Source of the DNA: a virus
Lineage: Duplodnaviria > Caudoviricetes
Virus record (IMG/VR): IMGVR_UViG_3300037785_000025
Coordinates: 1 to 30,056 of that record
Length of the DNA: 30,056 nt
Reading direction: 5' to 3' (one strand)
Made by a program: the position numbers and the translations under genes. This document shows, piece after piece, positions 13,969 to 25,500 of this stretch. The notes below the pieces were generated by a model. That model searched no databases, was not told the DNA's origin, and saw only the letters and a list, made by a program, of their open reading frames with translations. Position 1 is the first letter of the stretch, and every line of letters begins with the position of its first letter.

Positions 13969-14532
13969 TTAGCTTTTCGCTAATAAGTGGGATAAGTCTA
14001 AGTGTGCAAAGCTAGAGCGCTGTAGCGCCTTGCCTGTCACCGTCAGATAACGGCCATTGGGGTAAATCTCAACGCTAAGGCCGTTACGGCTAAAGCGCCT
14101 GCCCTTTTCCAGGGCGGCATAACCCCAAATGTGTAGGCCCGTGCCGCTGGGGCTGACCTCTATGTAGGTCTCTGGTAGTGAGTCAATCACTGACTGTGCC
14201 TCAGGGCTTGGCCTGCCATCAAAGCAATGGTCTAGGTCAATGCACACAATCCCGTCACCGTTGAGAACAAAGCCCAGTCCATCTCCAGCCGTTGCGGCCA
14301 GTGCGGTCTGGTAGTCACTCCAGGTAGCGGGGTTTGTAGAACTGGCTGGTTGGCCTGTCACTGTGATGGGCACTTTGCGGCTATGCCTAATCCAGCGGGG
14401 CAACTGCCTCAGCTCTATTGGGATGTGGTGTCCACGGTGAGATTTGACTCTACACCTGGTCCCACAAAACTTGGGTTTGCGGCCACGGCTACCAGGGTGA
14501 ACCTGGCTACCACAGACCTGACACTTATACAT
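13969..14532 (-). CDS. Zn-finger plus prim-pol (archaeo-eukaryotic primase superfamily) catalytic-domain protein
   Basis: 187 aa; CQVC..FCGTRC finger; AEP motifs CIDLD, EVSPSGTGLH and EIY...RYLTVTG; no C-terminal helical or helicase domain. Confidence 0.85.
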   Translation of the reverse strand: MYKCQVCGSQVHPGSRGRKPKFCGTRCRVKSHRGHHIPIELRQLPRWIRHSRKVPITVTGQPASSTNPATWSDYQTALAATAGDGLGFVLNGDGIVCIDLDHCFDGRPSPEAQSVIDSLPETYIEVSPSGTGLHIWGYAALEKGRRFSRNGLSVEIYPNGRYLTVTGKALQRSSFAHLDLSHLLAKS

Positions 14533-18996: not shown

Positions 18997-19008
18997 TGCC
19001 TGTCCTTT

Positions 19009-19146
19009 CTAGCTTGCTAGGAATAGGTCTGTGAGGATTGGCCAGACTGCGGCCAGGAAGTAGCGGTGTGGCTCATAGATAGCCACTAGGGCCCCTAGGG
19101 TGACCGCTAGGGCCACCGCTAGGGTTCTGCGGATTGTGATGGTCAT
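19009..19146 (-). CDS. Small membrane protein, 45 aa (not in the ORF track)
   Basis: MTITIRRTLAVALAVTLGALVAIYEPHRYFLAAVWPILTDLFLAS; TAATG coupling; fills the gap. Confidence 0.7.
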   Translation of the reverse strand: MTITIRRTLAVALAVTLGALVAIYEPHRYFLAAVWPILTDLFLAS

Positions 19147-19379: not shown

Positions 19380-19432
19380 CTGTTTGTCCTTTGTCCTTAC
19401 TGCCATGAGACCACCTTGACCTCATGTGAAAC

Positions 19433-21651: not shown

Positions 21652-22305
21652 TTAGTCCTCCACCTTGAATTTGTGCTTTGTCCTTTTCGGTTCTGGTTTG
21701 GACCATTCAGCCGCTCGCCTTACCCAGTTGCGGTAGGCGGCATCCCAGTCCTTTTTCATAGCGTTCTTGGTGGCGGCTTGCCAGTAATCCGTGAACTTAT
21801 GAGTTTCCAACTTTATGTCCACCCAGGGGAAGTGCTCTGACATGACAGCCAGCGTGTCCTCAGTTGGCTTCCAATCTTTGGGGAGGCGAGTAGCGCCAGC
21901 GCCCTCTCTTTTATTCTTATTACTTGTATTCTTAGTAATAGTATTCTTAGGGTGCGGATTATCCGTCAACGGTTTATCCGTCAACGGTTTTTCCGTCAAC
22001 GGTTTTCCCACCCACGGTGATTGAGTAGTCCACACGGCCTCAGAAAACTTGCCATCCTCCCTGGACTGCTCTCTTTTCAAGTAGCCAAATTCCTCTAGCT
22101 CGCTCACTGCGGCTTTGAGTGCATCACGGCCCTCCAAGTTTTCCTCAATGAGGCTGTTGATGCTTACAGACCATCCTGGGCTGTGACTCATCAGTAGCGC
22201 CATCAGGCCCCTGGCTTTGAGTGTTAGGCGGCTGTCCCTGACCCAGTTATTTGGTATCTGGGTGAACTGCCCATCAAAATTATGTTTTCCTCTAATTAGC
22301 GGCAT
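21652..22305 (-). CDS. Phage replication initiator (lambda O-like, N-terminal winged HTH)
   Basis: FTQIPN..DSRLTLKARGL, ELEEFGYL, internal KPLT repeats, C-terminal KKDWDAAYRNW; directly upstream of dnaB. Confidence 0.85.
   Translation of the reverse strand: MPLIRGKHNFDGQFTQIPNNWVRDSRLTLKARGLMALLMSHSPGWSVSINSLIEENLEGRDALKAAVSELEEFGYLKREQSREDGKFSEAVWTTQSPWVGKPLTEKPLTDKPLTDNPHPKNTITKNTSNKNKREGAGATRLPKDWKPTEDTLAVMSEHFPWVDIKLETHKFTDYWQAATKNAMKKDWDAAYRNWVRRAAEWSKPEPKRTKHKFKVED
21907..22005. repeat. Origin of replication: three iterons plus an AT-rich unwinding element
   Basis: TCCGTCAACGGTTT at 21962, 21977 and 21992, each with dyad CCGT-CA-ACGG; TATTCTTA at 21912, 21927 and 21942. Confidence 0.8.
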
Positions 22306-22345
22306 GTCTTATTCCTTTGTTTGTCCTTTTGTGTATCTTAGTCAT

Positions 22346-22445
22346 AGAGCATTGTTCCCCTTGGGCACGGTCCTCCTTTCTGAAGCGCAAGTTTGTCCTT
22401 TCGCTCCTAGTCCCCCTGGCTTTTAGCTGGGGGGATTAGTCTTTT
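22346..22445 (+). ncRNA. Candidate ~100-nt antisense or trans-acting sRNA
   Basis: Three hairpins; G-U pairs in hairpins 1 and 3 favour the + strand; terminator-like hairpin at 22407-22439 followed by TCTTTT; candidate -10 TATCTT at 22334-39 with no good -35. Confidence 0.45.
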
Positions 22446-22754
22446 CCCAAACTCATCATCTAGGTAATACCAGACACCCTCATAGGCATCAAACACTGGT
22501 GTTGTCAGCGGGTCCTGGCCTGCCCTCAATTTCCACCCATAACGCTGTGCGGCCTTAGATGCCGCCTCAGAGCTTTCAAACATCCCGTTGGAGTGACTAC
22601 ACACGACAACTATGTTGCTGGCGTTAGAAAGCATCCTAGAGCCTCCCATGCCTCTATTGCGCCTGTGTTGGGGCACTAAAGTCTCATCATCAATGCCACA
22701 GTGGTAGCAATGGCGGTCCCTGGCTAAGAACTTGGCAAACTCTTTCTTAGTCAC
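22407..22754 (-). CDS. HNH-like nuclease
   Basis: RDRHCYHC..QHRRNRGMGG..NIVVVCSHSN; GTG start. Confidence 0.7.
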   Translation of the reverse strand: MTKKEFAKFLARDRHCYHCGIDDETLVPQHRRNRGMGGSRMLSNASNIVVVCSHSNGMFESSEAASKAAQRYGWKLRAGQDPLTTPVFDAYEGVWYYLDDEFGKRLIPPAKSQGD

Positions 22755-22908: not shown

Positions 22909-23240
22909 CTAGTGGTCCTCCATTCCATCTCTACCAGCTTGCCTGCGGCCATGACAGCCATGAGGGACTCACTGAGGTGTTTGATTTTTGACTTGATTCT
23001 GTTTATCTCTACCTTTGCCAGGTCAGCCTGAAAGCGAGCATCAGCGCTCTTTAGCTTGGCTACAGCCTGGCGGTCAACTACTGTGCCTTGGGCTTTCAAC
23101 AGCTCTGAATACTCCAGTTTGTCTGCCTCTGCCTCCAGCTCTAAATACTTGGTCTCTGCCTGAGCGAGTAGGTCAATGCCTTTCTCACTCTGTTGGCGAA
23201 TCCTCTCCAGTTCCTTGATTATCTGTCCTGGGGTCTCCAT
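22905..23240 (-). CDS. Coiled-coil protein in the recombination module
   Basis: 111 aa, helical; GAAAGG RBS. Confidence 0.7.
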   Translation of the reverse strand: METPGQIIKELERIRQQSEKGIDLLAQAETKYLELEAEADKLEYSELLKAQGTVVDRQAVAKLKSADARFQADLAKVEINRIKSKIKHLSESLMAVMAAGKLVEMEWRTTR

Positions 23241-24062: not shown

Positions 24063-24953
24063 TTATTGTCCTTTCTTTGTTACTAGAAACGGCGAGCCAG
24101 TCCCTCTGGCTTGCCTGCTAAACACATGCTGGCCATCAACCAGACCACGCTTAGCAAGTCCCATCTTATCTAACACCTGGCTTTTGACTTTCAACGCCTC
24201 AGCCTTTGCCTCAGATTCTTTTTGTAGGGCGGCGAGCGCCTGAGCGCCAAGGTCACCTAGCTCAACCTCATCATCCTGAATTTCAGGGTGCATCTTTCTC
24301 ACGGTCTCATAGGTGCTCTCTGAGCCATCCCAGTCTGGAGCTTGGTCATTCTCTACTGCCTCCAGGAATCGCTCCACCAGGGCAATGTCAGCCTGTTGCT
24401 GAAAGTGGTCAGCCTCAATCTGAAACTCACGGTAGTCAGAGCCACCAATGAGGACAGCCAGAATAGCTCTCTGGATTCCCAGGGTGCTGAGATACCACTG
24501 GACCTGTGTCAGGTAATACAGCGGCACTCCCTCACTCCAGTCATCTGGAAAGCGGGCTGTTTTGATTTCTATGACCACCAGGTTGCCATGCTCATCAGTT
24601 GCTATGGCATCTGGGTTAGCGATTTGGTAAGGGCGCTCCAGGTTCTGCCAAGTGCCAACCTCAGGGATGACCTCTAGCTCTGGGTGCTCATCAATCAGTT
24701 TGCCCAGGACCACTGCCTCTAAGCGGCGGCCCCATTCCATGGCTGGTGAGTCTGCTATCTCACTGTCAATCTTGCCTGTGTATTTCGCCCAGGCGGTGTA
24801 GGCGCTCTCCCACTTATTCAGGCCAGCAATAGTCCCAACTTGGGACCCGCCAATGCCCTGATTGCGTAGCTGATGCCACTCTGGTGAACCACTCTCAAAG
24901 GTTCCCAGATGTTGCGCTATCTCAATTTGTTCTAACGGTTCAAGGTGTGTCAT
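24063..24953 (-). CDS. yqaJ: YqaJ-like viral recombination exonuclease
   Basis: EWHQLRNQGIGGS, WGRRLE, ANPD, IEIKT and YYLTQVQWY motifs; leaderless start MTHLEP at 24953. Confidence 0.93.
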   Translation of the reverse strand: MTHLEPLEQIEIAQHLGTFESGSPEWHQLRNQGIGGSQVGTIAGLNKWESAYTAWAKYTGKIDSEIADSPAMEWGRRLEAVVLGKLIDEHPELEVIPEVGTWQNLERPYQIANPDAIATDEHGNLVVIEIKTARFPDDWSEGVPLYYLTQVQWYLSTLGIQRAILAVLIGGSDYREFQIEADHFQQQADIALVERFLEAVENDQAPDWDGSESTYETVRKMHPEIQDDEVELGDLGAQALAALQKESEAKAEALKVKSQVLDKMGLAKRGLVDGQHVFSRQARGTGSPFLVTKKGQ

Positions 24954-24993
24954 AATGAGCACCTTATACCACGGAAAGGACATTGTGCAATGT
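24927..24993. promoter_or_regulatory. Overlapping divergent promoters
   Basis: - strand TTGCAC-18-TAAGGT-7-ATG(24953); + strand TTGTTC-18-CATAAT; dyad ACATTG-TG-CAATGT at 24980-24993. Confidence 0.6.
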
Positions 24994-25178
24994 TATACAA
25001 AAGGGATGATGACATTTGGGAGATGGAGTGCGACAGGTGCAAAATGAGACTTACAGAGGTCATAGCGGGTGACATGCCCATGGATGCCCCCTCAGCTATG
25101 CGCTATGCCTGGGCCTCTGGTTGGGCAATAACAAACACAGAGAACATCTGTGCGGGGTGCTCCAATGTTTCAAAGTAG
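24990..25178 (+). CDS. Small CxxC...CxxC Zn-finger protein, 62 aa
   Basis: Start MLYKRDD at 24990 after GAAAGGACA; CDRC...GW...CAGC. Confidence 0.75.
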   Translation: MLYKRDDDIWEMECDRCKMRLTEVIAGDMPMDAPSAMRYAWASGWAITNTENICAGCSNVSK

Positions 25179-25461
25179 GCTGGCCAAGCAAAAGTGGGAT
25201 GAGCTGAATGATGCCATTGATGATGCCAAGGTCAGAATTTCATGTAGGGAATCAGACCCTGATGCTTGGTTTCCTGATGAGGAAAATCCCCTGGGAAATA
25301 AATACACCATGGCAAAGCGCCTATGCGGTAAGTGCCCAGTCAGGGACCTCTGTTTAGAGTTTGCGCTGGTCAATGAGGAACAGCATGGTTTGTGGGGTGG
25401 CATGACCCACAGGGAAAGACAGAAACTTAGGGCCAGAGGTAGAGGCCGCCCCAGGGCATAA
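25165..25461 (+). CDS. whiB: WhiB-family Fe-S transcription factor with a C-terminal AT-hook
   Basis: C-x-DPDAWFP..AKRLCGKCPVRDLC..GLWGGMT..ER; tail RGRGRPR; start MFQSRL at 25165. Confidence 0.95.
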   Translation: MFQSRLAKQKWDELNDAIDDAKVRISCRESDPDAWFPDEENPLGNKYTMAKRLCGKCPVRDLCLEFALVNEEQHGLWGGMTHRERQKLRARGRGRPRA

Positions 25462-25500
25462 AAAAAAGACCCCCCAGCCGTAGCCAGGGGGATTCTTTTT
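25460..25500 (-). terminator. Intrinsic terminator between convergent whiB and holin genes (probably bidirectional)
   Basis: - strand CCCCCTGGC-TACG-GCTGGGGGG-TC-T8 (cUACGg loop); T tract on the + side as well. Confidence 0.85.

Follow-up and report, generated by a model that had tools for sequence, protein, structure and literature searches.

The intergenic region upstream of the replication initiator gene of this phage very probably encodes a small RNA of about 100 nt, and comparison with related loci makes it probable that this RNA acts in trans as a repressor of early translation with several targets. The window, which is the whole 30,056-nt virus record, carries direct terminal repeats, and PHROG matches among the 50 proteins scanned describe a siphovirus with WhiB, RecE, HNH, initiator, DnaB and RusA genes, a set that points to an actinobacterial host. 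Neither a cI nor an integrase was found among these 50 proteins, in agreement with the remark in the initial annotation that the phage has no recognisable cI. The nearest cultured relatives by the HNH protein are the Arthrobacter phages Pitbull and MrSmee (HNH 48-51%); both possess integrase and HTH genes, and neither has such an RNA element before its initiator. When GTDB genomes were scanned once using the HNH alignment, a search of limited sensitivity, one distant locus and no prophage relative came up. Elsewhere in the window, a stand-alone primase-polymerase-like gene (13969-14532) lies just ahead of the terminase genes, as it does in four relatives.

The RNA element is located between the HNH and initiator genes, both of which are on the - strand, with the following organization:

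22407..22754, - strand: HNH endonuclease gene (phrog_740), whose last codons are antisense to the terminator of the RNA
21652..22305, - strand: replication initiator gene (PHROG replication-initiation/HTH families)
22334..22339, + strand: predicted -10 hexamer TATCTT of the promoter of the RNA, with no clear -35; relatives have TAnnnT there
22346..22445, + strand: predicted small non-coding RNA, ~100 nt, its 5' end placed from the -10 box
22347..22375, + strand: hairpin 1, variable in sequence; most relatives are predicted to have a 5' hairpin
22369..22381, + strand: second seed GGUCCUCCUUUCU, lineage-specific, fitting the ribosome-binding sites (RBSs) of gene 22908 and dnaB
22382..22407, + strand: hairpin 2, its stem replaced among relatives, with the main seed in the loop 22388-22401
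22391..22402, + strand: main seed GUUUGUCCUUUC, within which GTCCTTTC is identical in all 12 of the close elements that were aligned
22407..22445, + strand: hairpin resembling an intrinsic terminator, followed by a U tract; the variable tail of the HNH ORF overlaps it
25460..25500: late/whiB terminator, whose hairpin sequence recurs in the terminator of the RNA

The claim that the region 22334-22445 folds best on the + strand is borne out by its predicted energies (-42.3 kcal/mol, z -3.4, against -34.1 kcal/mol, z -2.6, on the - strand), and the terminator-like hairpin noticed at its end is indeed present as a 15-pair stem (22407-22439) followed by TCTTTT. Two structural details required revision: the 10-mer CCTCCTTTCT, described as single-stranded, is only half so, as 22373-75 pair with 22347-49 in the predicted fold, and in place of TTTGTC comparison with relatives favours the larger loop of hairpin 2 given above. 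The hairpin shared with the terminator at 25460-25500 is real but lies on the - strand of that terminator. The late terminator hairpin is nearly identical in the 15 phages examined and resembles the terminator of the RNA, and in two relatives (L013 and L043) an AAT-containing loop is common to both. A functional pairing through this shared sequence was considered and rejected, given that the late terminator is conserved while that of the RNA varies. A consensus scan recovered no -35/-10 promoter at the element in the window, where only the -10-like hexamer is seen, itself without TGn spacing. In three metatranscriptome runs 5-6% of the sequence words were present, and the metatranscriptome contigs touching the element, one of which crosses it, are unstranded and of depth 2-5.

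Relatives gathered with initiator and HNH queries allow the polarity of the element to be assessed. Among 164 distinct HNH 3' ends, a terminator-like hairpin is antisense to the gene in 61 and sense in 4; in the closest tier the terminator is antisense at 30 of 32 loci and sense at none, many of these being near-identical and hence not independent. Across the terminator, the HNH tails differ in length and in the position of the stop. Upstream, at a similar distance, relatives have a TAnnnT hexamer whose middle is variable. When 13 clustered lineages were set against 41 control initiator leaders, with seven loci of a second element type excluded from both, TAnnnT was present in 12 of the lineages and 22 of the controls (p 0.011), TGnTAnnnT in 7 and 1, respectively (p 7e-5), and the anti-SD core in all 13 and in 5. 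The elements are 74-127 nt long (21 elements), and the antisense fold is more stable than the sense fold in 20 of these 21. The stem of hairpin 2 varies (GAAUCG/CGGUUC, UGACCG/CGGUUA, CAGGGUUU/AAACCCUG) around a retained loop, and seed cores are predicted to be unpaired in 23 of 27 cases. In seven relatives (L015, L024, L411, L102, L112, L118 and L028) a seed lies in the terminator loop, either instead or additionally. RNAalifold on a MAFFT alignment recovered the stem of the terminator, 4 of whose 10 pairs show changes on both sides, and did not recover hairpin 2. No Rfam family matched the element: in the window, a search at E<=1 gave only a chance miRNA match elsewhere, and seven related loci gave nothing at E<=0.1. 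A DNA-pattern scan of viral contigs returned 119 stretches, with one new member (L251), most of the others probably being chance matches.

These comparisons bear on the reading that the motif works on the sense strand or as DNA, be it as a site for a phage protein or as an RBS repeat spread by recombination, with the + strand hairpin merely stopping stray transcription. The intergenic copy is oriented like the - strand targets, TGTCCTTT lies within both predicted promoter regions of the window, and one A-C pair of hairpin 2 in the window favours the - strand; the SAS motif literature discussed below also leaves room for either protein or RNA readers, as far as its available text goes (PMC3203893). 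Against this stand the conservation of the antisense -10 box despite its variable middle, the excess of G-U over A-C pairs in hairpin 2 across elements (7 vs 3), the nearly uniform preference for the antisense fold and the shift of seeds into terminator loops. We therefore regard a sense-strand or DNA motif as improbable.

The initial annotation proposed that the hairpin 2 segment is complementary to six sites at early genes. All six are present with the lengths first given, and a further site for the second seed at gene 22908 is added to them here:

22319..22329, - strand: 11-nt candidate target, which lies 14-24 nt upstream of the ATG of the initiator
24066..24075, - strand: candidate target at the RBS of the gene that follows recE (ATG 24062); its covariation with the seed is the best among the sites
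19382..19392, - strand: candidate target, RBS of gene 19379, the first gene past the gap after rusA
19001..19009, - strand: candidate target, RBS of gene 18996 (DUF7246), a seed complement
24974..24982, + strand: candidate target, RBS of a small Cys-rich gene (ATG 24990) ahead of whiB
22914..22921, - strand: 8-nt candidate target for the second seed, at the RBS of gene 22908
21654..21661, - strand: RBS of dnaB, pairing with 22369-76 through 7 Watson-Crick pairs and one G-U pair, not consistently in relatives
21677..21686, - strand: seed-complementary 10-mer inside the initiator ORF, a doubtful target

The last of these had been assigned to dnaB, an assignment that fails, as it falls within the initiator ORF, upstream of the dnaB ATG by 26-35 nt. 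The core AAAGGACA occurs six times on the - strand, one of these being the element itself, against 0.88 expected. Net cofold energies of the window targets are modest (-7.9 to -13.0), and a capsid control reaches -9.9. The region 24950-25000 is promoter-like and face-to-face, with recE apparently beginning at 24953, almost leaderless; the seed-matching RBS of gene 24990 sits in the spacer of the predicted recE promoter.

Matches were counted over all in-frame starts. Five genomes were compared, the window's own and those of four relatives that are whole or nearly so. Perfect complements of at least 9 nt to the genome's own seed were found at 18 of 132 early starts and at none of 158 others (Fisher 3.6e-7). 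The SD hexamer is itself commoner in early genes (6 early and 0 late in the window), and the early bias is therefore partly a matter of RBS style, for which shuffling of the flanks with the SD-core hexamer kept provides a stricter test: 0.13-0.7 matches were expected per genome and 5, 5, 3, 4 and 1 observed (p 0.002, 0.0035, 0.022, 0.0125 and 0.12). Divergent seeds are specific, with the seed of L411 matching 4 of its own starts and that of L024 matching 3, and neither matching any in the four other genomes. At the first gene after recE in eight phages (that of L024 being equivalent by position and not orthologous), the own seed matches the RBS over 7-10 nt; 2 of 40,320 permutations attain the observed sum, as does 1 of 720 when six seed types are permuted. 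The seeds were hand-picked and for 14 loci the matches had been seen first; six loci outside that set gave 5, 3, 2, 2, 2 and 0 matches. In L011 a match of 15 nt extends to the start codon. The target set is not uniform: the initiator is not a target in every phage, at dnaB the own seed ranks near the top in no more than 5 of the 16 phages, no seed signal was seen at ssb in the relatives tested (some starts in this comparison being mis-called), and the second seed of L015 fits the RBS of holin, a late gene. The covariation could also come from recombination homogenising the RBS repeats of one phage.

Two further readings of the seed copies appear far less likely. In the first, the RNA would mainly target host mRNAs, or would damp host translation by serving as a general anti-SD sponge. 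All seeds do contain an anti-SD core, and the window has the 10-mer CCTCCTTTCT, which is 16S-tail-like and which the initial annotation equates with the 3' anti-SD end of actinobacterial 16S rRNA. This 10-mer is, however, found in 1 of 24 elements, and the seed flanks follow the RBS flanks of the phage itself. The suggestion of a 16S mimic or anti-SD decoy as a conserved feature was accordingly rejected, and we consider an action centred on the host very unlikely. In the second, the seed copies would be RBSs of short - strand leader ORFs coupled to the initiator, and both window copies do precede a start (TTG 22390, 32 codons, and GTG 22368, 8 codons). Such an ORF is not conserved: a start follows the hairpin 2 copy by 3-13 nt in only 1 of 11 close relatives, and for 9 of 27 seeds overall. 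This reading too was rejected, and we would give it hardly any weight.

The chief rival to a trans-acting repressor is a cis-antisense RNA of the lambda OOP or plasmid ctRNA type, in which the HNH-initiator complement would be paired, the loops would kiss and the distant matches would be incidental. The layout of OOP comprises a start near the initiator and an overlap with the preceding gene's 3' end; the RNA here likewise begins ~40 nt upstream of the initiator and runs into the preceding gene at its 3' end. Lambda OOP is a short antisense RNA with its own promoter adjoining the replication initiator (PMC12197685, available text), and RNAII of pMV158 is an antisense counter-transcript beside a replication initiator (PMC4485353, available text). 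The predicted promoter and terminator of the element, its antisense orientation and its place beside the initiator all conform to this pattern. The unit also persists where the N-terminal domain of the initiator or the upstream gene has been exchanged, and seedless antisense hairpin units occupy the same position in distant relatives. OOP and ctRNAs, however, act on one cis target, whereas the loops here fit several distant RBSs and covary with them; a purely cis role leaves these specific matches unexplained, and its duplex would end short of the initiator RBS. No match to an OOP or ctRNA family of Rfam was obtained in the window or seven related loci. On balance, we view a role confined to cis as unlikely, if the most serious of the alternatives.

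Several observations on the surroundings of initiators accompany this comparison. In L026, L027, L028, L043, L118, L126 and L251, a different HTH type has taken the place of the initiator's N-terminal domain, with its C-terminal domain and the RNA unit kept; L251 and L118 also keep an apparent remnant of the old initiator start region. A second conserved unit, seedless and consisting of two hairpins, is found upstream of the initiators of L365, L371, L169, L170, L180, L184, L207, L228, L055 and L394, and adjoins the seeded element in L098 and L364. It has G-U pairs on the antisense strand, ends in a U tract, faces a sense -10-like box and, by analogy, looks like a plasmid-type counter-transcript. 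A third arrangement, in L362, L173 and L194, is an antisense unit of ~70 nt that follows an HNH-linked gene. It comprises two hairpins, a TATAAT-like box and a terminator, but no clear seed, and in L173 its terminator stem provides one 9-nt RBS match. Finally, L366, L403 and L190 have an antisense hairpin with a CUCCU/UUCCU loop before a terminator and almost no matching starts.

Together, the polarity of the unit, its loop seeds, the confinement of the sites to early genes and the covariation of seed and site are established by comparison of sequences. Along with the conserved + strand box, they support the multi-target repressor of early translation that was first suggested; the transcript, its pairing in the cell and the repression we infer from them. 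Pairing over the SD sequence normally blocks initiation. We propose that the RNA would be transcribed opposite the early operon, from a predicted promoter of host type, that its predicted open loops would pair over the RBSs of several early genes and that this pairing would lower their translation. As it accumulates, the RNA might damp a few entry points of early expression, namely the genes after recE and rusA, the whiB operon and often the initiator, and could thus conceivably serve as an early brake or an early-to-late switch in a phage in which no repressor was found. It might also be bound in cis by its perfect complement in the HNH-initiator mRNA.

In its action the element resembles, by analogy, C4/CI or cuckoo-type RNAs, and in its placement OOP and counter-transcripts. 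The C4 and CI RNAs of phages P1/P7 and P4 are likewise phage RNA repressors that use short complementary sites, and C4 acts via such target sites. P4 CI pairs with seqA and seqC (PMC4825925, in the part available); it is processed from the transcript of its own target and causes termination, and both C4 and CI are RNase P substrates (PMC5499578, in the part available). The element differs in being antisense-encoded with its own predicted promoter and terminator, a polarity deduced from the -10 box and terminator antisense to the early operon, so that processing from the same strand as its targets is not seen. Its candidate targets are the RBSs of several unlinked genes, no lysogeny genes were found, and no Rfam covariance model of this group matched the window or seven related loci. 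The element, which had been compared with P4 CI and P1 C4, thus does not show the features of these families that were examined. The Cuckoo (CcsR) RNAs of Alphaproteobacteria similarly combine variable stems with a retained C/U-rich loop, though in theirs, which come from bacterial genomes, the loop sequence CCUCCUCCC is invariant and is displayed by 2-4 hairpins (available text of PMC4615179); the loop of the element differs by phage, following the RBS flanks, and the 24 folded elements show loops other than CCUCCUCCC. VpdS of phage VP882 is a further phage sRNA affecting both phage and host mRNAs, but it is Hfq-dependent and belongs to a temperate Vibrio phage, and the accessible portion of the account describes no private RBS tag (PMC12197685). 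The element is best placed in a working class of trans-acting anti-SD sRNAs, having a predicted unpaired seed that is complementary to several RBSs and covaries with them. Neither this RNA nor any phage RNA that covaries with RBS tags of its own phage was found described in the literature searched, outside which most subscription papers lay. Six supplementary files of Fremin 2023 (PMC10690425, seen in part) gave no match to two motifs and three sample numbers; an earlier unannotated prediction of this RNA might exist in its files 1, 2 and 4, which are not among these six.

The tags recall the SAS motifs of cluster K and EF actinophages, which are over-conserved motifs at RBS positions before non-structural genes, the EF consensus including GAAAGGAC (PMC7302621, PMC3203893, both in available part). 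As in SAS, the tags are confined to RBS positions of non-structural genes (18/132 vs 0/158 starts). SAS motifs, however, are 13 bp long, occur in 10-19 copies and are often accompanied by ESAS, whereas the tags here are 8-15 nt long, number 1-6 per genome, have an evident complementary RNA gene and do not show the 13-bp GGG..CCC consensus among those listed. One SAS of opposite orientation is reported in four K1 phages (Pope 2011, PMC3203893, available text). In Anaya the loop of a long hairpin, 10 nt in size, consists of this SAS, and the hairpin belongs to a conserved intergenic region with its own promoter-like sequence; across 10 cluster K phages, the apical loop has the exact anti-SAS 9-mer in 3, an SD-like variant in 2 and neither in 5. 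This structured region (L429:29683-30067, between genes 96 and 97 of Anaya; also L431-L438 and L430) is matched by 193 records, contains a promoter-like TTGAC...TAGACT and has no relevant Rfam match. In the 48.7 of 56.7 kb of AnnaSerena covered, nine SAS-like matches are found, eight immediately ahead of a start and the ninth upstream of a gene by 22 nt, and none of the SAS cores has the opposite orientation. The putative anti-SAS loop is thus a lead and not a general explanation of SAS.

A broader and more tentative proposal, which we consider possible though clearly less likely than the repressor itself, is that phages without a repressor use an RNA to time their early programme by means of a private address code, in which each lineage tags chosen early RBSs and the loop of one small RNA reads the tag, the two co-evolving as lock and key. 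If true, such a code would also account for the SAS motifs of cultured actinophages and would provide a testable answer to a question that dates back to 2011: the possibility of an RNA reader was mentioned at that time (PMC3203893), and the role of SAS was still given as open in reports of 2024-2025 (PMC11373665) and as unverified (PMC12699233), to the extent of their available text. The pacing of early expression is unexplained in small lytic actinophages that lack recognisable repressors. A tag-reading RNA would offer a concrete mechanism for it, and one that yields exact compensatory mutations for testing.
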